Below, piece by piece: positions 7,829 to 63,502 of a stretch of DNA of 64,000 bases. A program made the translations under genes and the position numbers. Numbering within the stretch: the stretch's first letter is position 1; the number at the start of each line of letters is the position of its first letter. Under the pieces are notes generated by a model. It searched no databases. It was given only the letters and a program-made list of their open reading frames with translations, and was not told the DNA's origin. This DNA comes from Pseudomonadales bacterium. Its GTDB lineage: Bacteria; Pseudomonadota; Gammaproteobacteria; Pseudomonadales; JAHRWD01. The stretch lies in assembly GCA_016763075.1 (NCBI GenBank), contig JAESUM010000063.1, positions 4,254 to 68,253 of the forward strand. Direction: 5' to 3'.

Positions 7829-9513
<1,685 letters not shown>

Positions 9514-9617
9514 CTAATTGAGCTATTTCGAATGAATAATAATTACAGCGGGAGAGCCTAGTCCCCAAGCTCGGTAGTTGCAAAGCTTTTAGCGAACAAG
9601 CTGCTCGCAAGTACCCA

Positions 9618-18318: not shown

Positions 18319-18355
18319 GGAGGTTTAGCCCAGAGGTTGCGTATTACGTAACCTC

Positions 18356-18402
18356 TGCAGGCACAAAAAAAGGAGGCCTAGCCTCCTTTTTTTGTGCCTG
18401 CA
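18356..18402. terminator. Bidirectional terminator: perfect 22-bp inverted repeat with a 3-nt loop
   Basis: The arms are tgcaggcacaaaaaaaggaggc and gcctcctttttttgtgcctgca, with loop cta. It lies between convergent nhaD and the HD-GYP gene. Confidence 0.8.
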
Positions 18403-18444
18403 ATTTAATGCCTGCGATGAGTCAAAGTGTTATACGAAAAAGTG

Positions 18445-19692: not shown

Positions 19693-19959
19693 CTAGTGGT
19701 TTCTATTACCTGTCAATTGAACGGTGCGTTTTTCGCTAGTTTTGGCGCTACTGTTTGCACTACTGAAAGTTCATAAAATACGGGAGCTACGCGGTAAGTA
19801 TAGGAAAATTTCACTCTTTTTTCTTTATTCCCAGAGTAATGCCGAAATGCCAACCTAACCCTTGCAGCAGTTAAATTTGGAAAAAACAGATACGAGCGCC
19901 ATAATCACGGCCCGCTGATACACCACAACCATTCAAAACACAGGTTTAAAACGATCAAC

Positions 19960-38003: not shown

Positions 38004-38750
38004 ATGAACTCAAAATTATTAGCTGCTGGATTAACCGGCCTGTTAGCCTGCACCCCCGTGTCCGCCGACATGTTATTTGGAGTTTATGCCAAAGCAGGTG
38101 GCTGGAGCCAAGCACCATCGGGCGGGTTTGGCGACAATGCCAACCAATTCAACCTAGAAACTGACCTAGGCATGGACACCGAAACAGGCACCATGGTGTC
38201 TATCGCGGTTGAGCACTTCATACCGTTAATTCCAAACATCAAAATTGAGCGCACAGAACTGAGCTTCAGCAGTGCTGGAACCCTCACACAGGGCCTGACC
38301 TTTGGCGGCGTTACCTTTGCCAACGGCGCAGCCGTAACCAGTGAAATTGATTTGTCCCATACTGATTTCATTTTGTATTATGAAATACTCGATAACTGGG
38401 TATCTCTAGATGTCGGCGTAAACGTAAAAATGTTTGATGGCGAGCTAGCCGTCACCACCGGTGGCAATACCGGCCGAACTGACTTGTCAGTTCCGGTTCC
38501 TATGCTGTACGGAAAAGCTCAATTTGAGCTGCCTTTTACTGGCCTCAGCGCGGGTGCAGAAGGAAGTTATATCGGCTTTGATGGCGATGCATTCACAGAT
38601 TTACGAGGTTATATCGGTTACGAATTCATGTTCGGGCTTGGTGTAGAAGTAGGTGTTCGTAGCATCGTCATAGAATTTGACGACCTTGATGACGCCGCTA
38701 TTGATACTACATTTGAAGGCGCGTACATCAGCGCAACCTTTCATATATAG
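38004..38750 (+). CDS. Putative outer-membrane beta-barrel protein
   Basis: 248 aa with a signal peptide (LLAAGLTGLLACTPVSA). Alternating hydrophobic beta-strand patterning runs throughout, and the C-terminus is aromatic-rich (YISATFHI). Confidence 0.6.
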   Translation: MNSKLLAAGLTGLLACTPVSADMLFGVYAKAGGWSQAPSGGFGDNANQFNLETDLGMDTETGTMVSIAVEHFIPLIPNIKIERTELSFSSAGTLTQGLTFGGVTFANGAAVTSEIDLSHTDFILYYEILDNWVSLDVGVNVKMFDGELAVTTGGNTGRTDLSVPVPMLYGKAQFELPFTGLSAGAEGSYIGFDGDAFTDLRGYIGYEFMFGLGVEVGVRSIVIEFDDLDDAAIDTTFEGAYISATFHI

Positions 38751-45831: not shown

Positions 45832-46950
45832 ATGAAGCCCACCGTTAAACCCGCCAATCCTAACTTTTCATCTGGCCCCTGCAGCAAACGCCCCGGCTAC
45901 GATGTTAACGCGCTGGATATCACTACCCTTGGCCGTTCGCACCGCTCCGCTATTGGCAAAACCGCCCTGGCTCGAGCCTGCGCAAATACCGTTGAATTAC
46001 TAGGATTGCCGCAAGGGTATCGGGTTGGCATAGTGCCTGCTTCAGATACTGGCGCGGTAGAGATGGCGCTATGGTCCTTGCTCGGGCCAAAACCGGTTGA
46101 TGTATTCGCCTGGGAATCCTTCGGTGAAGGCTGGGTTGGCGATATCACTAATCAGCTTAAGCTCGATAACGTCACCGCACACCGGGCGGATTACGGCTTG
46201 TTGCCAGATTTGAGCCAAGCCAACCCCGACCACGACACGGTTTTCACCTGGAATGGCACCACCTCCGGGGTCAAGCTTATTGATGGCGACTGGATCAGCG
46301 ACCAACGCACAGGCCTAACCATTTGCGATGCAACCTCTGCAGTATTCGCAATGGAAATGCCCTGGGAAAAGTTAGACGTCGTGACATTCAGCTGGCAAAA
46401 AGTACTGGGCGGCGAAGGCGCCCACGGCATGTTGATACTCAGCCCGCGCGCGGTTGAACGGCTAGAGACCCACATACCCGCATGGCCAATGCCCAAAATC
46501 TTCCGCATGACTAAAAAAGGTAAGTTGAACGAAGGCATCTTTAGAGGCGAAACCATCAACACGCCTTCGATGCTTTGCGTGGCAGATTACCTTGATGCGC
46601 TGGATTGGATACGCGAGATTGGCGGTGTCGATGCCAGTATTGCTCGTTCGAAAGCGAACCTTGCGGTAATAGAAGAGTTTGTCGCTGCCAACGACTGGAT
46701 CGACTTTCTTGCACAGGACCCGGCAACTCGCTCCAATACCAGCGTATGCCTAACGTTAGATTTAGAACCCGCACAGATAAAAGAGCTGGCCAAACAGCTG
46801 GAAGCACAAGGCGTTGCATACGATATAGGCGCTTACAGAGATGCCCCAGCAGGGCTAAGAATATGGTGTGGCGCTACGGTTGAAGCATCCGATGTTAAAG
46901 CCTTGATGCCTTGGCTTGCTTGGGCTTACGAGCAAGCCGGAGCAAAATAA
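45832..46950 (+). CDS. serC: Phosphoserine aminotransferase (short, SerC-2 type)
   Basis: 372 aa with the N-terminus [18 protein letters not shown] and a PLP-Lys region ([14 protein letters not shown]). Confidence 0.78.
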
Positions 46951-50691: not shown

Positions 50692-51399
50692 CTATACAGA
50701 AATTCCCCTACCTATCAATATCAAAGATACTGGTTTTCCAGTTATCGGATTGATTGGCTCTTTCTGATGAACTAATTCGTAGCCATGTAGATGAAACAAA
50801 TCAATCCACGATTCGGTAGTTCGAAAATACCATGGAGCGGGATCGTAAAAATCGTCACTAAAACCAGCCCATGAACCTTCGCGCCAACCATCCTCATATT
50901 CTTTTTGATTTGAGCATTCACGTGGATTTAGAGTTTGCACAATAAAATAACCACCTGGGTTTAAAACAGAGGGGACTGATTTAAAAACATACTCTACCGA
51001 TTCTTTTCCTAGCAGAGAAAAATTGCAGACAGCAATATCAAACTTTTTCGCTATTGTTTCGAAGGAAATTTTCTCGTAAGCCAATACCAGAAAATCACCA
51101 GTAGCATACTTGTTGGCGTCTTCGATCAGTTCAGGAATAATATCCAACCCCGAACAAGAGATGCCGAGATCTGAAAGTGCTCGCACTAACCAACCTTCGC
51201 CGCAGCCGATATCCAAAACAGTTTGTGGTAAAACCGATACAATCGCATCGATAATGGCTTGATTGGTGACAAGTTGCCGACTTGCAATCTGTTTTTCCTG
51301 GATCGCAGTAATCCATGGCCTTGCATTTTTATTCCAGGAATCAACTATTGCTTTGTCGTTAAATGTTTTCAAGCGATTCTCATTAACAAATGTTAACAA
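50692..51399 (-). CDS. Class I SAM-dependent methyltransferase
   Basis: 235 aa with an apparent TTG start and SAM motif I (VLDIGCGEGWL). AT-rich coding sequence. Confidence 0.7.
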   Translation of the reverse strand: MLTFVNENRLKTFNDKAIVDSWNKNARPWITAIQEKQIASRQLVTNQAIIDAIVSVLPQTVLDIGCGEGWLVRALSDLGISCSGLDIIPELIEDANKYATGDFLVLAYEKISFETIAKKFDIAVCNFSLLGKESVEYVFKSVPSVLNPGGYFIVQTLNPRECSNQKEYEDGWREGSWAGFSDDFYDPAPWYFRTTESWIDLFHLHGYELVHQKEPINPITGKPVSLILIGRGISV

Positions 51400-51450
51400 A
51401 GGTCAATTAAGCACCACGAAAAATTAGTTGGCGTCCACTATGTGTGGCCG

Positions 51451-51816
51451 CTATGGTTTTTCTAACTCGTGCTTATAAAGCTTGTTCCAGGCACGCATAC
51501 CACCCGTTAATTGTTTCACATCTGTATAACCAAGATCCGTCAATACCCGAACCGCTGGAATACTTCGATGCGCACTCAAACAGATCGTCACCACAGTCGT
51601 ACTCTTGTCAAAATTTAGATCATCTGCGGCGCTATTAAGATTGATGATTGGAATATTAGTCGCACCCTTTATATGTCCAGACCGCCATTCAGCCCGAGTA
51701 CGGACATCGAGTATCTGCACGGAATCATCACTATTTTTAAGCAGTAAATTGAGCTCTTCAGATGAGAGTTCAGGTACCTTGCCAACAGGTATCCATTTTT
51801 TTATTCTGGAAAACAT
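51451..51816 (-). CDS. Rhodanese-domain protein
   Basis: 121 aa, single rhodanese-size domain. It has ILDVRTRAEWRSGHIKGA and an active-site-like loop (ICLSAHRS). Confidence 0.7.
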   Translation of the reverse strand: MFSRIKKWIPVGKVPELSSEELNLLLKNSDDSVQILDVRTRAEWRSGHIKGATNIPIINLNSAADDLNFDKSTTVVTICLSAHRSIPAVRVLTDLGYTDVKQLTGGMRAWNKLYKHELEKP

Positions 51817-51951
51817 ATCGATAGTTCCAAATTACGTTACTTGTGAAAATGAATAAATTATTTGAACCGGAACCCATATCGGTTCCAGAGTCAGTTCTTT
51901 ATTATTTACAGGCAATAGATTACTTCATTCAACAGAGGTTATCATTTAAGC

Positions 51952-52515
51952 TCAAATCTGAACTGATACGCCAGAAACAAAAGGATGCATATACACAAAA
52001 CCAGCAAACAGTGCAGCTCCAATAACAAGCGCGAAAAAATCTCCGCGAACAGAAACCGACTCCAGTTTAACCCACTTACCATCACGCTTATTGATCAAAA
52101 CAATATCTATTAACGCCCACAGACCAAGAACACCAAACAATAGCAGGGAGCGATTTTCACCGTTTGAAAGAAGGTGCCCCAAACTAAAGGCCATTACTCC
52201 AATTAGCTGTGGATGACGAATAACTCGTTTGATGTTGTTTTGAAAGCCTGAGGCAGAAAAAAGTATAAACGCAGCCAGCGTCAATATACTCGTAGCTATG
52301 CTACCCCATCCCGGTGAAACGTAGATCGAAACCGGGTTTATAGAACGCCAACCAAAAACCATTAAAGCAATGGATGACAGCATCAAAACTGAAAATATTC
52401 CTTTGTACCCATTCTCACCCAACTTATCCAAAAGCTGCTGCCGTAGCGGCCCCGCCAAAAATTGCAAAAGATGCAATACACACCAAAGCCCAAGGCCAAA
52501 CGAAAGTAACATCAT
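51952..52515 (-). CDS. NnrU-family membrane protein
   Basis: 187 aa with about 5 TM helices. RHPQLIGVMAFSLGHLLSNGE resembles the conserved NnrU motif. Confidence 0.65.
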   Translation of the reverse strand: MMLLSFGLGLWCVLHLLQFLAGPLRQQLLDKLGENGYKGIFSVLMLSSIALMVFGWRSINPVSIYVSPGWGSIATSILTLAAFILFSASGFQNNIKRVIRHPQLIGVMAFSLGHLLSNGENRSLLLFGVLGLWALIDIVLINKRDGKWVKLESVSVRGDFFALVIGAALFAGFVYMHPFVSGVSVQI

Positions 52516-52960
52516 TTTTTTATCTCCAATTAGTCAAATCAGCCAACTTTAACTCTTCGTGATCGACAAACCTATGCTCCGAACATCTTATCCAATAAAC
52601 AAAAAGTAAACGCAGATTTTTTATAACCTGGATTCGTAAGAGCTATGCGATTGTTAAATTACAGCAAACAAAAGGGTCTGCGGTCCTTCACCTGTGGAGC
52701 CACTAGAATATAAGGATGCTCATACGCTCAGCTCAATGGGTAAATTTTTTCAAGGTCAGCATGTACTAACCTTACGAACCCGAATGCGTAAGGGCATATC
52801 GACTCTTCAAGCCTGCTCTGCCCCCCCTTCTGTAAAACCACACCGAAAACATACGCAACACACCCATCTCCAGTTAACTTATTGGTAGAAATACTGGACA
52901 AGCCCATAGATCTACATGATAATCATTCGTATTAGTGAGCTTTCATCTTTTGGAGTCTTT

Positions 52961-53452
52961 ATGTCCTTTATCTGCACGAACCACCGCCAACACATTCTAA
53001 GTTCTGTCGAAACAGCCAACCTTTACTGGAGCCAGTGGATCGAGCTAGGGATAAAACAGCTAAATCAACAAAACCCGTCCGAGGGCATCAGTTTTTTGGG
53101 GTGTGCTCTGGATGTCGCTGACTGGTTGGTCGACCAGCCCCAGGCTTTCCAGTTAAATCAACTCAACGAATATTTTGAAAAATTATCGCTATCGAGCTTT
53201 TTACTAGCGGAGTGCTTTTTGCGTGTAAATAGGCCGGATCTTGAGCTTCATTTTCTACTGCAACTACATCATCGCCTGCTGGAGAACAGAGGAAGCCAAC
53301 AAAACGTTTTTTGGCCGCTTTCAGGTTATATCAGGCAATCGTTAGAAAGGTTAGAAGACTATGTAGAACACCATGGTGAGTTTACAGGTTACAGGGAGTG
53401 CCTTATTGACACCCAAAATCAACTTGATGAGCTCAATTTAGCTCTAAATTAG
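52961..53452 (+). CDS. Hypothetical protein (orphan)
   Basis: The ORF begins at 52916, but the ATG at 52961 (MSFICTNHRQ) has a GGAG about 6 nt upstream. About 163 aa, helical and Leu/Gln-rich, with no motif I recognise. Confidence 0.45.
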   Translation: MSFICTNHRQHILSSVETANLYWSQWIELGIKQLNQQNPSEGISFLGCALDVADWLVDQPQAFQLNQLNEYFEKLSLSSFLLAECFLRVNRPDLELHFLLQLHHRLLENRGSQQNVFWPLSGYIRQSLERLEDYVEHHGEFTGYRECLIDTQNQLDELNLALN

Positions 53453-53489
53453 ATTCACACGCCTCCCAATTTACAATCGGAGTTATGTT

Positions 53490-53681
53490 ATGCAAACCTG
53501 TAACAGTTCAATAACTACAGAAAAGTACGTCAATATTCAGATGACCGAAAAGACGCTTGCGCGGCTCATCAAAGAATCCAACATTCATGCAACCGATATT
53601 CATCCACTCGATCGCACATCCAAAATATTCGTGTGGAAATCCTGCCTTGATAGCTGCTTTAGTGAAGGGCTGCCAGGGTAG
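53490..53681 (+). CDS. Small hypothetical protein, possibly co-transcribed with the preceding ORF
   Basis: 63 aa. GGAG lies 7 nt upstream of the ATG, which is 37 nt after the preceding stop. No recognisable motif. Confidence 0.3.
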   Translation: MQTCNSSITTEKYVNIQMTEKTLARLIKESNIHATDIHPLDRTSKIFVWKSCLDSCFSEGLPG

Positions 53682-53752
53682 CTACCTTAACCAAAGGTAC
53701 CGCTGGAACTAATATTTAAGGCGGATTAATAGCTACACCTGAAAAGCATTAT

Positions 53753-54331
53753 CTACTTAAATATGCCGGTCTCTTTTCCATCCAGGCTATGGGTATTTTC
53801 TTTTTCCCAGTAGTCCTCAACACCTTCACGGCCATTTTTGGTCGCCCAGTTTTCCAGCGTGGGTCGTTCTTTTTTATGCTCCATAAACGGAACAGCAAAT
53901 CCACAGGAAGTTTGCACCATGGATATATCGACAACAAACAGTTGACGTGTGCCGACGTACGCGGGAAACAAACCAATCAGTTCATCCCATTCGTCGTCGC
54001 GCTGGTGAATAGCTCTTGCACTACCGTACACTCGAAAAATAAGCGGCTTCAGATCAAAGGAACAAAACATAATGGTCATACGATTATTTTCAAGTACGTG
54101 AGCTGCCGACTCATTTCCACTACCTGTTAAATTCAGCCACACTATTTTTGATTCGCTAATCACTCGCAGGCTGTCCATCCCTTTCGGTGATACATTCACA
54201 TAACCATTTTCAGCGGCGGTACCCACAAAAAAAACATGCTGATTACCGATAAATTCAATATGGGATTGTTCTAACTTAGGGAATTGTTTTGCCACAGATG
54301 AGCCCTCATTAAATATAGATCCACTATTCAA
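53753..54331 (-). CDS. Pyridoxamine 5'-phosphate oxidase-family FMN-binding protein
   Basis: 192 aa with split-barrel family features (HVFFVGTA...NVSPKG, MFCSF) and typical length. Confidence 0.65.
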   Translation of the reverse strand: MNSGSIFNEGSSVAKQFPKLEQSHIEFIGNQHVFFVGTAAENGYVNVSPKGMDSLRVISESKIVWLNLTGSGNESAAHVLENNRMTIMFCSFDLKPLIFRVYGSARAIHQRDDEWDELIGLFPAYVGTRQLFVVDISMVQTSCGFAVPFMEHKKERPTLENWATKNGREGVEDYWEKENTHSLDGKETGIFK

Positions 54332-54384: not shown

Positions 54385-55266
54385 CTATCCGCACACACCG
54401 GAAACAAAAGCCGCGGTTAGTTCACTTTCTGGCGTTTCAAAAAGAGAATCACACTGACCAAACTCGATCAGTTTTCCAACCTTTTCTACCATCCAGAAAA
54501 AGCCGGCGTAGTTGGCTACTCGTTTAGCCTGGGCCAAATTGTGGGTCACGATCACAACGGTATAACGGCCAGCAAGGCTGCTGATTAGCTCTTCTACTTT
54601 TGCAGAGGCGATTGCGTCAAGAGCGCTACAGGGTTCATCCATTAATAAAACTTCTGGTTCCAAAACCAGAGCACGCGCAATACAAAGCCTTTGCTGTTGG
54701 CCGCCGGAAAGAGCGAGCGCGGGGCTGTCTAAACGGTCTTTGACCTCATCCCATAATCCCACTTCTCGTAATACTTTTTCGGTTTTTTGGGCTAGCTGTT
54801 TACGATTACGAATACCGTTTTCTTTCAGAGGCAGGTAAAGATTACGGCGAATTGAGAGTGGAAAGGGGTTGGGTTTCTGGAAGATCATACCGATGCGGCG
54901 GCGCAGATTCAGGGTATCTGTTTTTACAGCCAGGATTTCCTCCCCATCGAAACGGATAGATCCCTGTACCTGTGCAGTTGGCATCATATCGGTGAGTCGA
55001 TTCAGCGACGATAAAAAGCTGGTTTTTCCGCAACCGGATGGGCCAATCAGCGCAGTGATACAACCTTTGTAGATATCCAGCGATACGGTTTCGAGAACCT
55101 GATGTTCACCGTAGCTGACGGAGAGATCCCGAACCTGTATATGAGGTTCGGGCAAACAGCAGGGTTGCGCCTCGGTTATTTCGCTCAGCGTATAAGAGGT
55201 ATGGTTAGTTTCGCTACCCTGGTTTAAGTAAACTTTTTTGCCTGGATTGGGAGTCATTTGATTCAT
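54385..55266 (-). CDS. pstB: PstB-type phosphate/oxyanion ABC transporter ATPase with a ~30 aa N-terminal extension
   Basis: 293 aa with ALIGPSGCGKTSFL, the PstB-typical IGMIFQKPNPFPLSI, LSGGQQQRLCIARAL, and LLMDEPCSALD. Confidence 0.85.
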   Translation of the reverse strand: MNQMTPNPGKKVYLNQGSETNHTSYTLSEITEAQPCCLPEPHIQVRDLSVSYGEHQVLETVSLDIYKGCITALIGPSGCGKTSFLSSLNRLTDMMPTAQVQGSIRFDGEEILAVKTDTLNLRRRIGMIFQKPNPFPLSIRRNLYLPLKENGIRNRKQLAQKTEKVLREVGLWDEVKDRLDSPALALSGGQQQRLCIARALVLEPEVLLMDEPCSALDAIASAKVEELISSLAGRYTVVIVTHNLAQAKRVANYAGFFWMVEKVGKLIEFGQCDSLFETPESELTAAFVSGVCG

Positions 55267-55277
55267 ATCAGTTACGC

Positions 55278-56108
55278 TCAGGTCGCAAGTCTTCTGTACA
55301 ACCAGCGGTCGGAAAACCCCTGGGCCAGCAGGTTAAAGAGGATAATCAGGGCGATCAGCACCAGAGCCGATGCATGGGCCGCTGGGTCACCCCCGGTTAC
55401 GTTCATCGAAAGATCATAAATATGTACCGCCAGTGCACGACCGGAGTCGAGCAGGGATTCGGGCATACGATCGACATATCCACTGGTAAAAATAAGAGCG
55501 GCGGTTTCGGCGGTGGCACGACCAATACCCAATATCAGCCCGGCTGAGATAGCAGGTGCGGCGGCGGGCAACAGAATATGCCAGACCGCTGAAGTACGGG
55601 TCATTCCCAGCGCCTCTGCGCCCTGTCGCCAGCTATTGTCAACCGCTGTCAGGCCAATTTCGCAGGTACGGATAAATACCGGCAGGATCATAACCGCCAA
55701 CGTCAGGCCTCCGGAGAGAATGGAAAAACCCATGCCGAGATAGATCGAAAAAAATGCATTACCAAACAGGCCAAACACTATCGAAGGAATACCGGCCATT
55801 ACATCCAGCGCTAAACGGATCTGATTGCTCAGACGATTTCCTCTGCGAGTGAATTCCGCCAGCCACACCGCCACCATCAATCCAAGGGGCAACGCGACTG
55901 CCAGGGTTACACCGATAATCAGTAGCGTAGAAACCAGAATGGGGCCGATGCCGCCGCTACGACCGGCATTTTCTGGCGCGCTGAATATAAACTCCAGCGA
56001 AATATGAGACAGCCCCAGTCGAGCCAGATCACCCACTATCCACAACAAAGCCGCAGCAACCAGTGCTGCGCTTAGCCAAACTGCTGAGCTAAATAGACGA
56101 TCAGCCAT
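55278..56108 (-). CDS. pstA: PstA-type ABC permease
   Basis: The ORF extends to 56162, but the likely start is the ATG at 56108 (MADRLFSS), giving an ATGGCTGA overlap with the pstC stop. It has an EAA-like loop (EALGMTRTSAVWHILLP). Confidence 0.82.
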   Translation of the reverse strand: MADRLFSSAVWLSAALVAAALLWIVGDLARLGLSHISLEFIFSAPENAGRSGGIGPILVSTLLIIGVTLAVALPLGLMVAVWLAEFTRRGNRLSNQIRLALDVMAGIPSIVFGLFGNAFFSIYLGMGFSILSGGLTLAVMILPVFIRTCEIGLTAVDNSWRQGAEALGMTRTSAVWHILLPAAAPAISAGLILGIGRATAETAALIFTSGYVDRMPESLLDSGRALAVHIYDLSMNVTGGDPAAHASALVLIALIILFNLLAQGFSDRWLYRRLAT

Positions 56109-56958
56109 ATTGTTTGCTCGATTCGTTAGAGCGCGCCGCCAACCATGCCAGTGCCAATACAATTAGCGTCAGCAACAGCCCAGAGGCGAACAGACTGGCG
56201 CGATGAAGATCCGTCGCATAGGCCATCTCCAAAGCAATGTTCGCGGTTAATACCCGCACCGGCTCAAACAATCCGCTGGGGTATTGCACCACGTTGCCCG
56301 CCACCATCAGCACCACCATGGTTTCGCCAATGGCGCGGGCCATCGACAACAGGGCAGCACTGCGGATTCCGGCACCGGCGCTGGTAATCGCGATATAACA
56401 GATACGTGCGCGAAGGGTTAAACCAAGGGCCGCCGCTCCGTTCATTAGACTGCCAGGCACTGAGGACAATGCCGACGCGCTGGCCAGTGCCATGGTTGGT
56501 ATCACCATTAACGCCAGCACAATAGTGGCTGCTAGCAAGCTTGTACCCGGCGGTTGCCAGCTGCCAATGATCGGCACCAGTACGGTTAATCCCCACAGTC
56601 CTAGCACTACAGATGGCATACCCGCCAGCAGTGACAGCAGTAATCGAAATGCTTTGGCCAATACCGGCGGCGCGTAATATTGCAGGAAAATAGCGCAGCC
56701 AAGGCCGATTGGCGCAGCAATCATGATGGCTCCAAGCATCACCACCAATGAGGCAACTAACATCGGCAAAATGCCAAACAGCCCCTCCATCGGGTACCAG
56801 CCACTGTCGGCAAAAAACAATCGCCAACCGCCGCCGGTTAAAACTGGAGCTGCCTCTTTAATAAGAAACAGCAGAATCAATAACAGAATGGCCGCGCAAA
56901 CAAACCCCGCCAGCCGCAGCGGTGGTTCGACTAACCGATCAATGTTGCCGCGAAACAA
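56101..56958 (-). CDS. pstC: PstC-type ABC permease
   Basis: 285 aa with 6 TM helices, GAAALGLTLRARICYIAI, and ARAIGETM. Confidence 0.82.
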   Translation of the reverse strand: MFRGNIDRLVEPPLRLAGFVCAAILLLILLFLIKEAAPVLTGGGWRLFFADSGWYPMEGLFGILPMLVASLVVMLGAIMIAAPIGLGCAIFLQYYAPPVLAKAFRLLLSLLAGMPSVVLGLWGLTVLVPIIGSWQPPGTSLLAATIVLALMVIPTMALASASALSSVPGSLMNGAAALGLTLRARICYIAITSAGAGIRSAALLSMARAIGETMVVLMVAGNVVQYPSGLFEPVRVLTANIALEMAYATDLHRASLFASGLLLTLIVLALAWLAARSNESSKQYG

Positions 56959-57790
56959 AGAACTGCCCTTCCACTAAATCATCGACCTGAGCGCTTTGCG
57001 CGAACAGAATAAAACGTTTCGCCAGATCCGTTAGTTCGCCTTTGGTGACCAGATTTAGCGGCCTTGAGAGCGGGAAATCGCCGCTTCTGACCGTGGCAAT
57101 GCTGGCTTCGACTCCGTTTACAATTGGCCTTTTTATACTGACACCACGCTGCTCTTCATACTCCGCCGTGCCAATCGATACATAACCAATTGCGCCGGGA
57201 TTACCGGCAACGGTTTTGATCCCCTGCTGATTGTCGCCAATGATAACTCTGGCTTTGATCTGGCTGTTTCGTAATCCAAAATAGTGCAGGAACAGTTCCA
57301 ACGTCGAACGACCTTCAGCTTTATTGACCACTGTAATGCCTCTATCTTCACCGCCTAGCTCGCGCCAGTTAGCAATTTTTCCGGTATAAATTGCCCGGAT
57401 TTGATCATCGCTCAGCTGGTCCACCGGATTGTCGCTGTGCAGAATAATGCCAATACCATCGGTGGCAATAGTATGAGCGGTAAGATCCGTTTCGGACTGT
57501 TTTAGAGCGCGGGAAACCATGCCGATATCCGCCAGTCCACGGCGAGCGTCGTTGATGCCCCGGGATGATCCGCCGGTTTGAACATCGATCCGAATACCGG
57601 GGTTTAGTTTCTCAAAACGTTTAGCGATCTCAAGTGCCAGGGGTGCAACGGTGCTGGAGCCGGTTAGTGAAAGGTGCTCGGTTGCGGTTGAGATACCCGG
57701 CACAAATACCAGCAGCAATACCAGAGTCGCCAGCCTGCGAATTGAGATCCGCTTATTTCGATCTCTATTTTTATAGAGAGTAAAGATCAT
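56939..57790 (-). CDS. pstS: PstS-family (PBP2, type-2) periplasmic oxyanion-binding protein
   Basis: 283 aa with a signal peptide, GSSTVAPL, GGSSRGI, and ADIGMVSR. The ATG overlaps the stop of the upstream transferase gene (ATGA). Confidence 0.8.
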   Translation of the reverse strand: MIFTLYKNRDRNKRISIRRLATLVLLLVFVPGISTATEHLSLTGSSTVAPLALEIAKRFEKLNPGIRIDVQTGGSSRGINDARRGLADIGMVSRALKQSETDLTAHTIATDGIGIILHSDNPVDQLSDDQIRAIYTGKIANWRELGGEDRGITVVNKAEGRSTLELFLHYFGLRNSQIKARVIIGDNQQGIKTVAGNPGAIGYVSIGTAEYEEQRGVSIKRPIVNGVEASIATVRSGDFPLSRPLNLVTKGELTDLAKRFILFAQSAQVDDLVEGQFFVSRQH

Positions 57791-58470
57791 AGTATTCCTA
57801 ACTTTTCATTCGTTACATTCTGTATCGGCTTCCTGAATTGGTTGAACTCTTCGCTTTCCGGCAGCCACTTCAAATCATCAGGTTCATCAATATCGTGGAG
57901 TATCGGCAGCTCTTTCAGAGTCCAATTTAGGGCTGATATTTTCTCTCGTGTTAACTGTGCAACCTGATCTGTACTCCAGGGGATATCGGTAAATAGCGAA
58001 GTATCAAACCGATTCAGCCCCAGCAATGCGTAACCACCATCACTCACAGGGCCCAGACAAACATCGGCCTGAGAGAGTTTTTGCACAGCCAGCTTCAACA
58101 TATCTGCATCCAGCATTGGGCAGTCGGTGCCGATGATCAGCACCGATTGATCTTGCTCTAATACTCTTTGAGCAGCACCGGACATCTTCTCACCCAAATC
58201 ACCTTCACCCTGTTTTTCCCAAACAATATTGGCGGGCAACTCTAAGTGTTTCCATTCGGGCAAATTCGGGTCTGGTGTCACGCAAAGTTCGACGGTTCCG
58301 ATATTGGCGGTTATCGCTTGTTTGACCGTACGAGTAAGCAATTGGGCTGCCAGTGCCGCCGCGCCTTCGTCACCCAACACCGGGCTAAGTCTGGTTTTGG
58401 CAAATCCTGCCATCGGGGCTTTGGCGAAGATCACGATTCGTAGCGGCTTTGGCGCAGCGGACAGCTTCAC
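57787..58470 (-). CDS. DUF2064 / TIGR04282-like nucleotidyltransferase-fold protein ('transferase 1, rSAM/selenodomain-associated')
   Basis: The ORF extends to 58533, but the GTG at 58470 forms a GTGA overlap with the upstream stop. The motif IVIFAKAPMAGFAKTRLSP is typical of DUF2064. Confidence 0.7.
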   Translation of the reverse strand: MKLSAAPKPLRIVIFAKAPMAGFAKTRLSPVLGDEGAAALAAQLLTRTVKQAITANIGTVELCVTPDPNLPEWKHLELPANIVWEKQGEGDLGEKMSGAAQRVLEQDQSVLIIGTDCPMLDADMLKLAVQKLSQADVCLGPVSDGGYALLGLNRFDTSLFTDIPWSTDQVAQLTREKISALNWTLKELPILHDIDEPDDLKWLPESEEFNQFRKPIQNVTNEKLGIL

Positions 58471-59249
58471 CGGTAGAGACTCGCAAGGGTTTCTGCCGAT
58501 TCGCCGCGCCAATAGGCCCAGCGTAATCGCCACATTAGAAAAATGGTGTGCCAGGAGCCTCGTTGGTCCCAGCGTCGCCCAGAGGTAGTCACTTTTTGGA
58601 ATAGACAGACCGGAGAAGACAATTTCCGTAGGTGGCGGGAGATCTCAATATCTTCCATCAGTGGTTGATCGGGAAAAGCTGATACCGCGTAAAACGCGCT
58701 GCGGGTTACAAAAATTGCCTGGTCACCAGTAGCAATACCACTGAGACGAGAGCGTTTATTCATAAACCAGCTCACCATCGGAAGCATTTTTGATTTGCCC
58801 AAAATAGTTACGTCGAAGCGACCCCACTGTTTATTCGTTTGTTGAAGAACATCCAAAATCAAACGATCAGCATTAGCGGGAAGCCGTGTATCCGCATGCA
58901 AAAAAAGTAAATTTTCAGCCTGAGCTTTTCTGGCTCCTGCGTTCATTTGCCGCGCTCGACCGGCGGGAGCTGTCATCACTTCAAATTGCGCAGATGCCAG
59001 CTCGATAGAGCCATCGGTGCTGCCGCCATCAACCAAAATAATTTCGCAGCCTTTTTGCTGGAATTTTTGCAGATGGGCCAGCAGCGCAGGTAGCTGTTGG
59101 GCTTCGTTGAGCATCGGGGTGATGATGCTCAATAAGTTAGGTTTTATGGCAGGTTTATTTGCGGCGTTGTCCGTTGACTGGGGTGTTTTTGCGGTGGCGT
59201 TACTTATGCTGCGTGTGCTTTGCTTCAATGCCTTTTGTTCAGTTTGCAT
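58467..59249 (-). CDS. Family-2 glycosyltransferase, TIGR04283-like ('transferase 2, rSAM/selenodomain-associated')
   Basis: 260 aa with GT2 motifs (LSIITPMLNE and EIILVDGGSTDGS). It has a low-complexity N-terminal ~38 aa, so the start is uncertain. Confidence 0.72.
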   Translation of the reverse strand: MQTEQKALKQSTRSISNATAKTPQSTDNAANKPAIKPNLLSIITPMLNEAQQLPALLAHLQKFQQKGCEIILVDGGSTDGSIELASAQFEVMTAPAGRARQMNAGARKAQAENLLFLHADTRLPANADRLILDVLQQTNKQWGRFDVTILGKSKMLPMVSWFMNKRSRLSGIATGDQAIFVTRSAFYAVSAFPDQPLMEDIEISRHLRKLSSPVCLFQKVTTSGRRWDQRGSWHTIFLMWRLRWAYWRGESAETLASLYR

Positions 59250-60159
59250 CGTTGAGACGCCAATCGTATTTGAGGTATTTGATACTCAGATTACCTGCTT
59301 TTAAAGCCGAAACGTGCTGCTCATTTAGCTTAAGCTGAGGGCTGTAGGCTGCAAAAAAGGCTTCTAATGAATGATAGCTTCCCCAGCCTTTTTCAAAATC
59401 ATCGCGATACCATTTAAAGATTGAGGAAACATGCAATTTGCCGGCTTTGAAGCGGTTACGGCTGCTATCGGCTAAAAACTGTTTGGTTTGATCTTCCAGC
59501 TGTTGTTCTATTTTGGAGCCTTCGTAGGCTTCGCCGCGCAGCGCAGGGCAACCAATACTGGCGCAGTTCACGGCAAAATGAATACGTGGCTCGTTGTAGC
59601 GCCCGGAGTTACGAATCAGCTGGTGCTCAACGTCGTCCAATGATAAGTGCTTGCCTAACAACGGAATGATTTTTTTGCTCCAAGGCGAGCTAAAGAAACT
59701 CCCGAGATCTTTTATTGATTTTAAATCTGGGTATTTTGTAAGAATAAGCTCAATGGTCCAGGCGTTATAGGCGTTGATCAAAAAGGCGAGCTGGTCTGCT
59801 TTTGGCCAGTTTTCAAAGGTAGATTGGCGAATATCAGAAAGCGCATTCAAATACTCTTTTAACTGAGTTCGGTGAGTGGCAAAGCCAGCATAGCTCACTT
59901 GGGTAGAGCTGCCAGCTACCACGCCGTAACGCTGCGCTGGGCCTGGCTCAACAGGCACTACATGCTGCTGCAACAAGCCATTCCACTGAGAATGATCCAT
60001 CGCTGGCGTGGTATCGGATTTAGTGTCTGCAATGCTATTTCCTGCCATCACAGCCGTTAGCACAGCTGCGCTCACCGATAAAACCAAACTGCGGACAAAA
60101 CGCTTGCCGGTCTGTTGCAGCCCGTTAGTCAGCCTTGTGAATAGCCATTTTCGTTGCAT
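59239..60159 (-). CDS. DUF547-domain protein with signal peptide
   Basis: The ORF extends to 60192, but the likely start is the ATG at 60159 (MQRKWLF), 2 nt after the upstream TAA. It has a signal-like LVLSVSAAVLTAVMAGNSIA and the DUF547-like LAFLINAYNAWTIELIL. Confidence 0.68.
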   Translation of the reverse strand: MQRKWLFTRLTNGLQQTGKRFVRSLVLSVSAAVLTAVMAGNSIADTKSDTTPAMDHSQWNGLLQQHVVPVEPGPAQRYGVVAGSSTQVSYAGFATHRTQLKEYLNALSDIRQSTFENWPKADQLAFLINAYNAWTIELILTKYPDLKSIKDLGSFFSSPWSKKIIPLLGKHLSLDDVEHQLIRNSGRYNEPRIHFAVNCASIGCPALRGEAYEGSKIEQQLEDQTKQFLADSSRNRFKAGKLHVSSIFKWYRDDFEKGWGSYHSLEAFFAAYSPQLKLNEQHVSALKAGNLSIKYLKYDWRLNDAN

Positions 60160-60160
60160 G

Positions 60161-62311
60161 TTAGCCCCGTCGCCATGCGTGATAACGTTCAAGTAACGCT
60201 AGCACTTTTTCTGGCGCATGCGCTTTCTTCCACTCCCCTGCGGCGTATTTGTTGGCCTCTGCCCAGGTTGGGTAGGTGTGAATGGTTTCAAGAATTTTAT
60301 TAAGACCAAGACCATGCTTCATGGCCAATACAAACTCTGCCAGTAAGTCTCCTGCATGTTCGCCAGCGATGGTGACGCCCAGTATTTTATCTTTGCCAGG
60401 CACGGTTAATACTTTAACAAAGCCCACGGCTGCGCTGTCGGCGATGGCTCGGTCTAAGTCGTCTATACCATAACGGGTGAGTTCATATTCTATGCCCTGC
60501 TCTTTGGCTTCTTGTTCGTTAATGCCAACCCGCGCTACTTCAGGGTCAATGAACGTAGTCCACGGGATGACTCGATAATCGACCCGAAAGCGTTTGAACT
60601 GTCCAAATAATGCGTTCACGGCGGCATACCAAGCCTGATGGGCAGCGGTATGGGTGAATTGGTAAGGCCCTGCTACATCGCCTGCGGCATAAATATTGGG
60701 GTACAGTGTTTCAAGGTAGTCGTTGGTCAGCACGGTTCGGTTGGTTTCGATGCCGAGTTCTTCTAAACCATAGCCATCAAGGCGCGCAGAGCGGCCAACG
60801 GCGCACACCAACATATCAAATGGTATACGTTGTTCTTTGCCGTCTTTTTCAACCACGATAAATTTATCTTCGCCGTCGTTTTCGCAGCGCAGTGCCTTGT
60901 GTCCTGCCAGTATATTTACGCCATCGCTTTCAAGCGACTTTTGCGCCAGCGCTGATACATCTTCATCTTCACGAATGAGTATTCGCGGCAGCATCTCAAT
61001 TTGAGTGACGGCCGAGCCTAAGCGCGCAAAGCTTTGGGCTAGCTCGCAGCCGATGGGCCCGCCACCAAGTACCACTAACTTTTGCGGTGGTTGTTCGAGC
61101 TTGGCGCACTCTTCCCATAGGGTATCGCTGGTTAGGTAGCCAGATTGCTCAATACCCGGCAGTGGCGGCACAAAGGGGCTTGCGCCGGCTGCAATCACGA
61201 TGCTGCGAGCGGTTAATGTTTGGGTGCTGCCATCGTTCATTTTTATTTCGACGGTCCAGGGGTCTATCAACCGGCCATAGCCTTGCAATACTTCGACGCC
61301 GAGCTCGGTGTAGCGCTCGACGCTGTCGTGGGGCTCGATGTCGCGCACAATTTGCTCGATTCGAGCCATCACTTTTTTGAACGATAACGTCGGCTGTGCA
61401 GCATCAAGGCCATACTTGTCTGCGTTGCGCATTTGATGTGCAAGCTTGGCGCTACGAATCAATGCCTTGCTGGGAACGCAGCCGTAGTTCAGGCAGTCGC
61501 CGCCCATTTTATGGGCTTCAATCAATGTCACTTTGGCTTTTACGGTTGCGCCAATATAAGAGGCCACCAAACCCCCGGCACCGCCACCAATCACAATCAT
61601 GTTGCGATCAAACTTTTTGGGTTTGTTCCAGCGTGCATAAACCCGTCGGCTTTTGATGATACTGATGATTTTGTTCGCAATAAGCGGGAACAGACCCAAC
61701 AATACAAAGGAGAGCAGTAATTCAGGTGAAAGAATGCCCGATAAACTGGTGAGCTGCGCCAGTTGAGTGCCGGCGTTTACGTACACTACGGTACCCACCA
61801 ACATGCCTACTTGGCTGACCCAATAAAATGTTGCGGCTCGCATGGGGGTTAGGCCCATCACAAGGTTGATCACAAAAAAGGGGAACACCGGCACAAGGCG
61901 TAGCGTGAACAGGTAGAATGCGCCGTCTTTTTTAACCCCTTCGTTGATGGCTATTAGGCGCTCGCCAAACTTGGACTGAACCCAGTCTCGTAATACGTAC
62001 CGCGAAACCAAAAAGGCCAGCAAGGCGCCAATGCTGGATGCAAAGGAAACCAGTAACAAGCCCCAGCCTAGGCCAAATAATGCGCCACCCACCAGCGTCA
62101 TAATGGCTGCGCCAGGAAGCGATAATGCGGTGATAATGACGTAAACGCCAAAGTAGATGGCCGCTGCCAGCACAGGGGTTTGTGCGCGCCAATCTTGAAT
62201 TTGGCCAAGACTACCTTTAATACCATCGAGGGTGAGCAGTTGGTGCAAATCAAAGATAAAGAACCCAGCGATGACTCCAATCAGCGCTGCAACCAAAATA
62301 ATTTTTTTCAT
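60161..62311 (-). CDS. Fusion protein: N-terminal TVP38/TMEM64 (DedA-like) membrane domain plus C-terminal FAD pyridine-nucleotide-disulfide oxidoreductase
   Basis: 716 aa. The first ~225 aa are polytopic. They are followed by the FAD motif VIGGGAGG, the redox-active GGDCLNYGCVPSKAL (CxxxxC), an NAD motif (VVLGGGPIGCE), and a C-terminal dimerisation domain (HTYPTWAE). Confidence 0.8.
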   Translation of the reverse strand: MKKIILVAALIGVIAGFFIFDLHQLLTLDGIKGSLGQIQDWRAQTPVLAAAIYFGVYVIITALSLPGAAIMTLVGGALFGLGWGLLLVSFASSIGALLAFLVSRYVLRDWVQSKFGERLIAINEGVKKDGAFYLFTLRLVPVFPFFVINLVMGLTPMRAATFYWVSQVGMLVGTVVYVNAGTQLAQLTSLSGILSPELLLSFVLLGLFPLIANKIISIIKSRRVYARWNKPKKFDRNMIVIGGGAGGLVASYIGATVKAKVTLIEAHKMGGDCLNYGCVPSKALIRSAKLAHQMRNADKYGLDAAQPTLSFKKVMARIEQIVRDIEPHDSVERYTELGVEVLQGYGRLIDPWTVEIKMNDGSTQTLTARSIVIAAGASPFVPPLPGIEQSGYLTSDTLWEECAKLEQPPQKLVVLGGGPIGCELAQSFARLGSAVTQIEMLPRILIREDEDVSALAQKSLESDGVNILAGHKALRCENDGEDKFIVVEKDGKEQRIPFDMLVCAVGRSARLDGYGLEELGIETNRTVLTNDYLETLYPNIYAAGDVAGPYQFTHTAAHQAWYAAVNALFGQFKRFRVDYRVIPWTTFIDPEVARVGINEQEAKEQGIEYELTRYGIDDLDRAIADSAAVGFVKVLTVPGKDKILGVTIAGEHAGDLLAEFVLAMKHGLGLNKILETIHTYPTWAEANKYAAGEWKKAHAPEKVLALLERYHAWRRG

Positions 62312-62444
62312 CTGTTATTCCTTGAACATCGATGCGTCTAACATCTGTATTTTACTCGTTTGAATCTGTCGGCTCGCAGCCAAAACAATATTTTACCGTC
62401 TACGAGTTCATGAGGGGGTCTTCATTTTTGCGGCAAGTGAGCCG

Positions 62445-63398
62445 TTACAACGCGCCACCACAGCTGCTGCCTTGGCCTGCGGTGCAGCCATAACAATGGT
62501 CAGCTACGACAATGGGGTTGCCATCAATTTCCCGCGTTAGCAGGTCTCGCAAATGGGGGCGCTCTTCAGCGCCTAGGGTTAATTCCAGCTGCTGGTTGAA
62601 GTCGCAATCGTAAAGGTAACCCTGCCAATCGACGCTCACCATGGTGCGGCACATTAGGTTGCCTAAATTGCTTTCTAGGTAGTTGTCTTTGAGCAACTCC
62701 ATATACCCCTGGAAGGTACCCTTAGATATCATCGTCGAGCCAAAGCGTTTAATAGGCATGTTAGTGACCACAAATAACTCGTTAAAAACGATATCGAAAT
62801 GTTTGCTTAGCTCACGTTTGTAATCTGCCTGCAAGCCTTGTTGCTCCGGCGGTAGTGTTGGGCCTTGCGGGTTAAACACCAAATGCAAACTCAAGTCAGA
62901 GCCTGGCTGGCCATAGCCCAGTTTATTAAGCTCTCGTAGCGCCGCGATGCTTTTATCAAACACCCCGTCGCCACGTTGTTGGTCGACATTTTCTAGCGAA
63001 TAGCACGGCATTGAAGCCACCACCTGTACCCGGTACTGCGCAAGAAAGTCCGCGAGGCCTTCTTGGCCAGGTTCAAATAATATGGTCAGGTTGCAGCGAT
63101 CAATCACCGTTACGCCTAAATCTGTCGCAATTTTTACCAAACCCCGAAAGCCTTCGTGTAGCTCCGGTGCGCCACCGGTTAAATCCAGGGTTTTGATGCG
63201 GCCTGTTTTAAGCATGTCGACCACCACAGCAAGGTTCTCTTCATCCATCATTTCTTTGCGGGTTGGACCGGCATTCACATGGCAATGCAAGCAAGACAAG
63301 TTGCACTTATACCCCAAATTCACTTGAAGCGTTTCAAGCCCTGCTCGGTGTATCGGTGGGAAATCGGTGGCTTGTAAAAGGGGTAAAGTCGCGTGCAT
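62445..63398 (-). CDS. Radical SAM / C-terminal Cys-rich domain protein, ArsS-like (TIGR04167-type)
   Basis: The ORF extends to 63461, but the likely start is the ATG at 63398 (MHATLPLL), with GGAG 6 nt upstream. It has the rSAM cluster motif CNLSCLHCHV and the C-terminal motif HCYGCTAGQGSSCGGAL. The penultimate Cys is a TGT codon, not TGA. Confidence 0.75.
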   Translation of the reverse strand: MHATLPLLQATDFPPIHRAGLETLQVNLGYKCNLSCLHCHVNAGPTRKEMMDEENLAVVVDMLKTGRIKTLDLTGGAPELHEGFRGLVKIATDLGVTVIDRCNLTILFEPGQEGLADFLAQYRVQVVASMPCYSLENVDQQRGDGVFDKSIAALRELNKLGYGQPGSDLSLHLVFNPQGPTLPPEQQGLQADYKRELSKHFDIVFNELFVVTNMPIKRFGSTMISKGTFQGYMELLKDNYLESNLGNLMCRTMVSVDWQGYLYDCDFNQQLELTLGAEERPHLRDLLTREIDGNPIVVADHCYGCTAGQGSSCGGAL

Positions 63399-63483
63399 GT
63401 ATAGCTCCGGTGGCGGTGTTCGGCCGTTCAATAATAATCGTCCTGCACAGTAGATGCACAAATGCCTAATTTGTTACATCAAC

Positions 63484-63502
63484 AATGAATAAAAAATTCA
63501 TT
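63484..63502. promoter_or_regulatory. Perfect 7-5-7 inverted repeat upstream of the rSAM gene (candidate operator)
   Basis: aatgaat-aaaaa-attcatt lies about 85-105 nt upstream of the likely ATG at 63398, in an AT-rich intergenic region. Confidence 0.3.

Follow-up and report, generated by a model that had tools for sequence, protein, structure and literature searches.

The stretch of DNA analysed here, 64,000 nucleotides of contig JAESUM010000063.1 from a marine Pseudomonadales bacterium (hereafter the window), carries on its minus strand, at 54385-63398, nine co-directional genes that constitute one arsenic-handling operon, running from arsS, the gene for an enzyme of the radical S-adenosylmethionine (SAM) type, to four genes for a PstSCAB-type ATP-binding cassette (ABC) importer. 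Very probably, these four pst genes are members not of the housekeeping phosphate system but of a distinct Pst subfamily, which is strongly conserved and found almost exclusively next to arsenic genes. As to the cargo, the sequence features favour phosphate, the transporter being then an arsenic-induced phosphate importer, a reading to which we give a probability of about 45%.

Organization of the operon

The listing of open reading frames (ORFs) and the inspection of start codons showed nine tightly packed ORFs, all of them where the initial annotation had placed them, and hidden Markov model (HMM) searches agreed with every family assignment made there (TIGR04167, TIGR04282, TIGR04283, PF04784, VTT_dom and the Pst models). 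In the order of the genes, the features of the operon are the following:

62445..63398, minus strand: arsS, radical SAM / Cys-rich protein of 317 aa, with TIGR04167, Radical_SAM and DUF3641 matches
62312..62444, minus strand: gap of 133 nt between arsS and the eight packed genes (65 nt at the equivalent place in the related locus L006)
60161..62311, minus strand: fusion of a VTT (DedA/TVP38) domain with an FAD/NAD(P)H pyridine-nucleotide disulfide oxidoreductase, 716 aa (Pfam)
59239..60159, minus strand: DUF547 protein with an N-terminal hydrophobic segment (PF04784, 95.7 bits, above the Pfam threshold)
58467..59249, minus strand: family 2 glycosyltransferase (GT2), TIGR04283 (268.5 bits, cut-off 182)
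57787..58470, minus strand: DUF2064 / CofC-like nucleotidyltransferase, TIGR04282 (202.8 bits, cut-off 134)
56939..57790, minus strand: PstS-like periplasmic binding protein of 283 aa, with a signal peptide and no Cys
56101..56958, minus strand: PstC-like permease (TIGR02138, 206.4 bits, cut-off 196.45)
55278..56108, minus strand: PstA-like permease (TIGR00974, 243.1 bits, cut-off 193.45)
54385..55266, minus strand: PstB-like ATPase (TIGR00972, 328.7 bits, under the cut-off of 343.2)

The homologues of ArsS are 317-322 aa long, which favours the ATG at 63398 as the arsS start. From the oxidoreductase onwards the genes abut or overlap: a single nucleotide (C at 60160) separates the oxidoreductase TAA from the DUF547 gene, the DUF547 and GT2 genes overlap by 11 nt, the GT2 and DUF2064 genes share a GTGA, the DUF2064 stop and the pstS start share an ATGA, pstS and pstC overlap by 20 nt, pstC and pstA overlap in ATGGCTGA, and 11 nt lie between pstA and pstB. 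The overlaps at the DUF2064 and pstC starts hinge on the chosen start codons, a GTG at 58470 and a TTG at 56958, respectively. This geometry bears out the earlier proposal of a single tightly packed unit, and the junctions listed with that proposal stand, except that the oxidoreductase TAA is followed by a spacer of 1 nt and not 2 nt. Furthermore, no promoter-like or terminator-like signal within the cluster, including the 133-nt gap, rose above the expectation from shuffled sequence. The nine-gene arrangement is conserved and not a one-off, since the identical order recurs in L006, a relative 84-87% identical to the window, and the DUF547-GT2-DUF2064-pstS stretch is present again in L081.

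An arsenic-linked Pst subfamily in several phyla

Two independent PstS scans, one over one genome per species and the other over metagenome contigs, separated the PstS-like protein from other PstS proteins: matches were at least 49% or at most 39% identical, with the interval between them empty in both scans. Its relatives at 65-74% identity number in the thousands and belong to the Gamma- and Betaproteobacteria. We then compared loci by tblastn, with the window proteins together with ArsM, ArsR, extracytoplasmic function (ECF) sigma and DUF3179 sequences as queries, and counted arsenic-type genes (ArsM, ArsS, ArsC-like, ArsR, VTT reductase) within 10 kb of pstS in de-duplicated loci of at least 8 kb. 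Such genes were present in 20 of the 22 loci that carry the subfamily motif (none in the other two) and in 0/49 loci with an ordinary, motif-less PstS (Fisher's exact p = 1e-15). The linkage extends over Gamma-, Beta- and Alphaproteobacteria, Bdellovibrionota, Planctomycetota and Cyanobacteria. A chance juxtaposition with a housekeeping pst operon is ruled out by this subfamily-specific linkage, and the dedicated importer proposed in the initial annotation is upheld, the adjacency recurring in several phyla instead of being unique to this strain. The searchable literature, which leaves subscription journals outside its coverage, held no description of the ArsS/ArsM-Pst linkage, of the NKAEGRST pocket or of the PstB CC extension treated below.

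The gene orders in related loci (VTTox, the VTT-fused oxidoreductase) are:

Halioglobus and Haliea: ArsS-VTTox-DUF547-ArsM-(46 aa)-(Glu_synthase-like)-PstSCAB
Pseudomaricurvus: ArsS-VTTox-DUF547-ArsM-PstSCAB
Nitrosococcus oceani ATCC 19707: ArsS-VTTox-GT2-DUF2064-ArsM-ArsC-like-PstSCAB
Betaproteobacterial metagenome-assembled genome (MAG) L002: ArsM-PstSCAB alone
Nitrotoga: VTTox-GT2-DUF2064-...-ArsM-PstSCAB
Nostoc and Pseudanabaena plasmids, planctomycete loci L015, L018 and L020 (divergent in L019): ArsR-PstSCAB

The ArsM-like proteins of these relatives retain the full set of four canonical As(III)-binding Cys motifs and find their best HMM matches among arsenite methyltransferases. An ArsC-like gene of the low-molecular-weight phosphatase fold, with a CTGNSARS P-loop, has a thioredoxin-type arsenate reductase model as its best match (60.7 bits, cut-off 174). 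Its place is between arsM and pstS in N. oceani (L133 6930-7463) and Porticoccus, as in L010 (9439-9969), directly after arsM in L132 (808-1218) and upstream of pstS in L011 (7606-8031). The ArsM-ArsC-like-PstS junctions of N. oceani are overlapping or abutting. In Nostoc, Pseudanabaena and the planctomycetes, the ArsR encoded directly upstream of pstS has a C-terminal GCC; the Pseudanabaena plasmid in addition holds arsS, arsM, TVP38 and 'mercuric reductase' genes within 10 kb, and an ArsP-family permease gene lies near the module in Neorhodopirellula / L019. Viewed from ArsS, the pst module is accessory, as it is missing from Vibrio aerogenes and Bacterioplanoides, both of which have arsM.

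Transporter subunits and anion sites

Tested against family cut-offs, two of the four subunits pass as PstSCAB components (PstC and PstA) and two fail (PstS and PstB). The membrane-domain phosphate site resolved by cryo-electron microscopy consists of PstA Arg220 and PstC Arg237/Glu241 in the E. coli numbering (PMC12976172), and all three residues have their equivalents here, in the GRATAET motif of PstA (55503-55523) and the RAIGET motif of PstC (56320-56337). Both motifs are present in the window and in all aligned subfamily members except one truncated sequence. Because this site is fully conserved, the cargo should be a phosphate-like tetrahedral oxyanion.

The PstB-like ATPase carries an N-terminal extension, YTLSEITEAQPCCLPEPH (residues 25-42, 55141-55194), with the consensus YTLGxIxxGxPCCxPxPH in proteobacterial members. 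Its vicinal Cys pair is present in 120/120 top homologues. Canonical PstB lacks the extension, as do the cyanobacterial and Pirellulales members under ArsR control. It may serve the ATPase as a regulatory element that binds As(III).

The closest solved structures to the PstS-like protein are those of Clostridium perfringens PBP-1 (4Q8R / 4GD5, E = 3e-40), whose nine phosphate contacts are Ser11, Thr12, Ser13, Ser41, Ser59, Arg125, Ser129, Gly130 and Thr131 (PMC5381212); for E. coli PstS, Thr10, Ser38, Asp56, Arg135, Ser139, Gly140 and Thr141 served as the reference ligands. The PstS-like protein departs from the canonical PstS ligand set, with six of the nine PBP-1 contacts kept (Ser11, Thr12, Ser13, Ser41, Ser59 and Thr131). 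A GGSSRG segment lies at 57557-57574, and the anion loop reads NKAEGRSTLELF (57290-57325) where ordinary PstS reads SRE..SGT. An exact 16-mer spanning this loop occurs in 97/120 homologues and in none of the distant PstS proteins, and the loop or a near variant is present in every subfamily locus with readable sequence at that place, the cyanobacterial plasmid copies included.

Regulation

An ECF-sigma-type promoter-like element, TGTAACAA-N14-CATCTA, lies upstream of arsS and is shared with three related loci; its positions, with a spacer of N14-15 allowed, are:

63451..63478, minus strand (window): begins 80 nt upstream of the arsS ATG
L001 (Halioglobus japonicus): 3017, 8162, 17869
L006: 4544
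L066: 9942

In L001, L006 and L066, the element precedes arsS and each locus encodes a divergent ECF sigma factor (70% identical among them) together with a small anti-sigma factor with an HxxxCxxC zinc motif. Across the 1.7 Mb of fetched loci the pattern gave only seven matches, all on the coding strand of arsS-carrying loci, and N. oceani and betaproteobacterial loci have looser variants ahead of arsS or arsM. An ECF-sigma-type promoter upstream of arsS probably drives the transcription of the operon. Since the sigma/anti-sigma pair is missing from the window, the promoter there may be an orphan, or a sigma factor with its gene at another place may recognize it.

In L001, the motif also precedes the pstSCAB-containing unit and, at 17134-19889, a bufferin-like metallophore operon (DoxX / 86-aa / MbnB_TglH_ChrH / HvfC_N). 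That the bufferin-like, arsS and pstS units of L001 share the motif suggests a single metal/metalloid stress regulon.

Control by the Pho regulon was dismissed, as neither a Pho box nor phoU was found. A crude consensus scan of 11 upstream regions gave no Pho box above shuffled sequence (the E. coli pstS control scored 14/14), and a Pfam survey of the window found neither phoU nor phoBR, both being likewise unseen in the related loci. Regulation thus looks ECF-sigma or ArsR driven, not Pho driven.

Cargo of the importer

We favour phosphate as the cargo because As(III)-responsive control of an importer protects the cell only if what it brings in is useful, and because ArsR-PstSCAB modules exist without any downstream pathway. 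Such control could lie with ArsR, possibly with the zinc anti-sigma factor and possibly with the PstB Cys pair. The conserved Arg/Arg/Glu membrane site and the six retained PBP-1 contacts also speak for a phosphate-type cargo. The secreted PstS-like protein would capture a tetrahedral oxyanion in its remodelled pocket, PstC/PstA, with their intact Arg/Arg/Glu site, and PstB would bring it inside, and the importer would sustain the phosphorus supply while arsenate competes at the ordinary phosphate transporters. The N-terminal Cys-Cys of PstB is a candidate cytoplasmic As(III) sensor gating the pump, and it could fill the role that ArsR plays in the cyanobacterial and planctomycete members, which have no extension. 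The co-expressed enzymes would handle the arsenic that still enters: ArsS would join 5'-deoxyadenosine to methylated As(III), the CofC-like TIGR04282 protein might activate the arsenoribose and the TIGR04283 glycosyltransferase transfer it to give arsenosugar-type glycosides, and the VTT-flavoprotein and the DUF547 protein would act at the membrane, where the VTT/DedA domain may handle a lipid-linked product, a downstream chemistry that we infer from family membership alone. In the lineage of the window, arsM and the sigma/anti-sigma pair have been lost from the locus, and with arsM gone from it, an arsM at another place in the genome or a source outside the cell must supply the methylated arsenic. 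A precedent is provided by the pst operons of arsenite-oxidase islands, which are arsenic-induced and ArsR-regulated (PMC3834237).

Several observations weigh against phosphate. The PstS-like protein scores 173.7 bits with TIGR02136, under the cut-off of 206.6, and the PstB-like ATPase also stays below its phosphate-family cut-off. Three of the nine PBP-1 contacts are altered (Arg125 to Lys, Ser129 to Arg, Gly130 to Ser), as are two pocket-flanking positions (Ala43 to Arg, Arg132 to Leu), so that two arginines are gained, and next to the anion loop TRDAF has become TLELF, a gain of hydrophobic residues. All five pocket substitutions are near-invariant across the subfamily, and ligand residues that have changed and then been frozen usually indicate, in binding proteins, a change of ligand. 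In addition, the position of E. coli Asp56, the arsenate-discriminating residue with its low-barrier hydrogen bond, is Ser as in PBP-1, which is the least arsenate-discriminating binder measured (~150-fold; PMC5381212). Lastly, the linkage partners of the subfamily are arsenic-transforming enzymes (ArsM, ArsC-like, ArsS) and not efflux pumps, no ArsB or Acr3 being seen in the annotated related loci.

These same features would suit a purpose-built importer of arsenate (or methylarsenate), the main rival reading, which we consider possible but rather doubtful. The imported arsenate would feed an ArsC-like enzyme giving As(III), ArsM giving methylated arsenic and ArsS giving a 5'-deoxyadenosyl-arsenical, followed by arsenosugars and arsenolipids made with the TIGR04282 and TIGR04283 proteins and the VTT domain as scramblase, and the PstB Cys-Cys pair would gate the ATPase through trans-inhibition by As(III), by the logic with which MerT/MerP import Hg(II) for MerA. 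The mer operon indeed shows that resistance systems can import their own toxicant; the pocket has been remodelled and then held invariant with the discriminating Asp gone, PstS and PstB fall under the phosphate-family cut-offs, and pstS is translationally coupled to biosynthetic genes, through the ATGA here and in the ArsM-ArsC-like-PstS series of N. oceani. The lack of an efflux pump in these clusters and the membrane/lipid flavour of VTT plus GT2 would likewise fit an arsenic product that is retained. However, the modules that consist of ArsR-PstSCAB only would then import a poison upon sensing As(III) with no operon pathway downstream, ordinary phosphate transporters already admit arsenate, the Pho-type control expected if arsenolipids spare phosphorus was not found, and the window has neither an arsenate reductase nor arsM. 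The initial annotation had proposed that the oxyanion is imported, reduced and adenosylated in one pathway; this scheme is not supported, and the ArsR/ECF control, taken with the modules of ArsR-PstSCAB alone, agrees at least equally well with an importer of phosphate induced by arsenic. Selenite and phosphite, also named there as cargo, found no support.

An improbable variant is the import of pre-methylated As(V), that is, methylarsonate or dimethylarsinate, both common in seawater, which would be reduced by the flavoprotein and used by ArsS, so that a cluster without arsM would be self-sufficient. ArsS requires a methylated As(III) substrate, as in the Synechocystis pathway, and arsM is missing in the window and its two closest relatives with all nine genes intact; the hydrophobic residues that TLELF places beside the anion loop would also agree with such a ligand. 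The conserved Arg/Arg/Glu membrane site, however, suits a fully oxygenated oxyanion, and the pocket gains its two arginines as well. Moreover, the pocket is identical in arsM-bearing clusters, so the ligand should be alike with or without arsM, which disfavours this variant. Less credible still would be a phosphate transporter of the ordinary kind, housekeeping or second copy, that just adjoins the arsenic genes without being functionally coupled to them. Although PstC and PstA pass the phosphate-family cut-offs and the source annotations read phosphate ABC transporter components, comparative genomics effectively refutes this explanation: the linkage recurs across phyla and is subfamily-specific, phoU and a Pho box are lacking, the pocket and the PstB extension are specific to the subfamily, and some members are plasmid-borne under ArsR.

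Enzymes encoded with the importer

ArsS matches TIGR04167 at 453.6 bits (cut-off 300) over positions 2-303 of the 303 of the model, and its C-terminal Cys-rich part matches DUF3641 (185.6 bits, above the Pfam threshold). The CX3CX2C radical SAM cluster motif, CNLSCLHC, lies at residues 32-39 (63282-63305), and CYGCTAGQGSSC is found at the C-terminus (residues 302-313, 62460-62495). Its partner ArsM, though encoded in most related loci, is missing at the locus and in the window. In the V. aerogenes locus (L067 8569-9429), a divergent gene for a PNP_UDP_1 nucleoside phosphorylase adjoins arsS; its product is a candidate for the removal of adenine from the 5'-deoxyadenosyl-arsenical.

Residues 1-220 of the VTT-fused flavoprotein include several hydrophobic segments. 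In Pfam the protein matches VTT_dom, Pyr_redox_2, Pyr_redox and Pyr_redox_dim, with VTT_dom and Pyr_redox_2 above their thresholds, and it carries a redox-active CLNYGC (CxxxxC, 61478-61495). Its best NCBIfam model is NF004991, at 476.6 bits under a cut-off of 620. It was rejected as MerA, scoring 362.8 bits with TIGR02053 (cut-off 454.45) and having the CxxxxC disulfide only, without a C-terminal Cys pair. In Pseudanabaena, the VTT and flavoprotein domains are encoded by separate genes, and Bacterioplanoides has the VTT domain alone. Nothing ties the CxxxxC flavoprotein to the reduction of an oxyanion, as had been suggested for it, and some relatives carry a separate ArsC-like gene. The DUF547 protein contains a CASIGCP motif at 59548-59565, and its gene is also present in nine related loci. 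The TIGR04283 and TIGR04282 genes are adjacent, overlapping and in the same operon as arsS.

Loss of arsM and the rest of the window

Neither tblastn nor a Pfam survey of the remaining ORFs found an arsM in the window. In most relatives arsM lies immediately upstream of pstS, or with one ArsC-like gene between them, and the order without arsM is seen only in the window, L006 and L081; what the window shows is a lineage-specific loss of arsM. The initial annotation was thus right that there is no arsM here, and its view of the importer as standing in place of arsM falls, since most relatives carry arsM beside pstS. The window also has no arsC, arsR, acr3, phoU, phoBR, ECF sigma or second pst operon, and its Pfam survey found no AioA-type molybdopterin oxidase, ArsB or Acr3; aio-island neighbours were also unseen in the annotated related loci. 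Having no arsM, local regulator or ArsC-like gene, the window cluster is a reduced version. Synteny with L006 is shared on both flanks; L006 has DUF3179, anti-sigma and sigma genes between a pseudouridine-synthase-like gene and arsS, and the window is without them.

The window belongs to a Pseudomonadales MAG, with which its proteins agree at 100% identity, and the rest of it is ordinary chromosome, with spoT, gmk, rph, argB, dut, coaBC, an RND pump and znuABC. Downstream of pstB, an NnrU-family gene lies at 51952-52515, and three other genes of this part were considered for the arsenic system and not counted with it. A 235-aa class I methyltransferase (50692-51399), rejected as a hidden ArsM, has its best matches among UbiG / BioC-type proteins, lacks the ArsM Cys motifs and lies outside the operon. 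A rhodanese (51451-51816), considered as an Acr2-type arsenate reductase, matches sulfurtransferase-type models, and a gene on the opposite strand lies between it and the operon. A PNPOx-like gene (53753-54331) was considered as the tenth gene of the operon; in L006 it likewise comes after pstB, there at a distance of ~480 nt, and it is not found in other loci. The PNPOx-like, rhodanese and methyltransferase genes keep the same order in L006, NnrU excepted, and none is present in the other related loci. The G+C content of 50692-54331 is 41-43%, against ~48% in the rest of the window. In addition, four ORFs of 178-372 aa (7829-8569, 38004-38750, 45832-46950 and 52916-53452) have no Pfam match at E < 1e-6.

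Some further genes were observed in the related loci. A 46-aa ORF and a 527-aa Glu_synthase (FMN) protein lie between arsM and pstS in Halieaceae (L001 8249-9969; L007 / L073 ~8377-9960), behind their own copy of the ECF-type motif. Proteins of the DUF3179 family are encoded near arsenic/Pst clusters in Gammaproteobacteria, in a Phycisphaeraceae planctomycete MAG and on a cyanobacterial plasmid, at these positions:

L001: 845-1780 and 14523-15479
L006: 1813-2742
Also in L007, L011, L015, L026, L071, L073, L074 and L086

On plasmid pNe_5 of Nostoc edaphicum (L070 11108-12106), an IS630 transposase gene splits pstC of the ArsR-PstSCAB module, and because of this interruption that transporter copy is probably inactive.

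Significance and comparison with known systems

How a cell tells phosphate from arsenate is a classic problem, for which one low-barrier hydrogen bond in PstS has been the explanation to date. The subfamily described here is abundant, spans several phyla, lacks that bond, has a third of its ligand contacts rebuilt and has added a candidate arsenite-sensing Cys pair, a separate functional class that the annotation 'phosphate ABC transporter' would conceal. If it imports phosphate, it would offer a new mechanism of discrimination, which could be put to use in biosensors and in capturing phosphate from waters rich in arsenic. If it imports arsenate, it would be the first ABC importer dedicated to that anion, bacteria widespread in marine and fresh waters would be taking up arsenic deliberately and not merely tolerating it, and the view of arsenosugar and arsenolipid production by bacteria in the ocean would be altered. 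Cultured carriers are available in Nitrosococcus oceani ATCC 19707, Halioglobus japonicus, Pseudomaricurvus alcaniphilus, Neorhodopirellula pilleata, Nostoc edaphicum and Pseudanabaena galeata.

Among known arsenic systems, the pst1 operons of aio islands, with the ArsR-regulated pstS1 of Agrobacterium tumefaciens 5A (Li et al. 2013, PMC3834237), are likewise a second pst copy linked to arsenic genes that responds to arsenic/ArsR and not to phosphate only, and they raise the same question of phosphate or arsenate uptake. Their neighbours are aioBA and ars efflux genes, whereas here they are ArsM, ArsS, ArsC-like and ArsR. Only three plasmids in PLSDB encode a PstS with over 50% identity to ours, each of them cyanobacterial, and the remainder reach at most 35%; from this identity split, the plasmid-borne island PstS apparently belongs to another subfamily. 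Periplasmic binders of arsenic oxyanions also occur in arsenic loci as AioX, ArxX and ArrX, PhnD-like sensors for two-component systems. They differ in that they are not PBP_like_2 components of ABC importers, and AioX uses Cys, of which the PstS-like protein has none.

The Synechocystis ArsM-ArsS system, or TIGR04167-TIGR04282-TIGR04283 neighbourhood, is matched here by ArsS and both transferases above their cut-offs, and VTT/TVP38 and 'mercuric reductase'-like partners adjoin arsS and arsM on the Pseudanabaena plasmid as well; unlike that neighbourhood, the locus of the window has no arsM and has an ABC importer fused into the operon. To our knowledge, experimental support in this pathway concerns ArsM and ArsS only, the transferases being named by gene neighbourhood. 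With the mer operon the likeness, an analogy only, lies in a metal-responsive regulator and a periplasmic binder plus importer beside an enzyme of the flavoprotein disulfide-reductase family, although the transporter families are unrelated to the MerR-controlled MerP/MerT and the flavoprotein here fails the MerA tests.

Canonical PstSCAB(-PhoU) shares with the importer its four components, gene order, fold family, membrane anion site and six of the nine PBP-1 contacts, including Ser at the Asp position, and it differs from the importer in the five pocket changes, the PstB Cys-Cys extension, the lack of phoU and a Pho box, the sub-cut-off PstS and PstB and the arsenic-operon setting found here. 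Membership of the phosphate-specific PstSCAB family fails on two subunit cut-offs, three ligand residues, phoU and the Pho box, and by its architecture, fold and membrane site the system is a Pst-type ABC importer.

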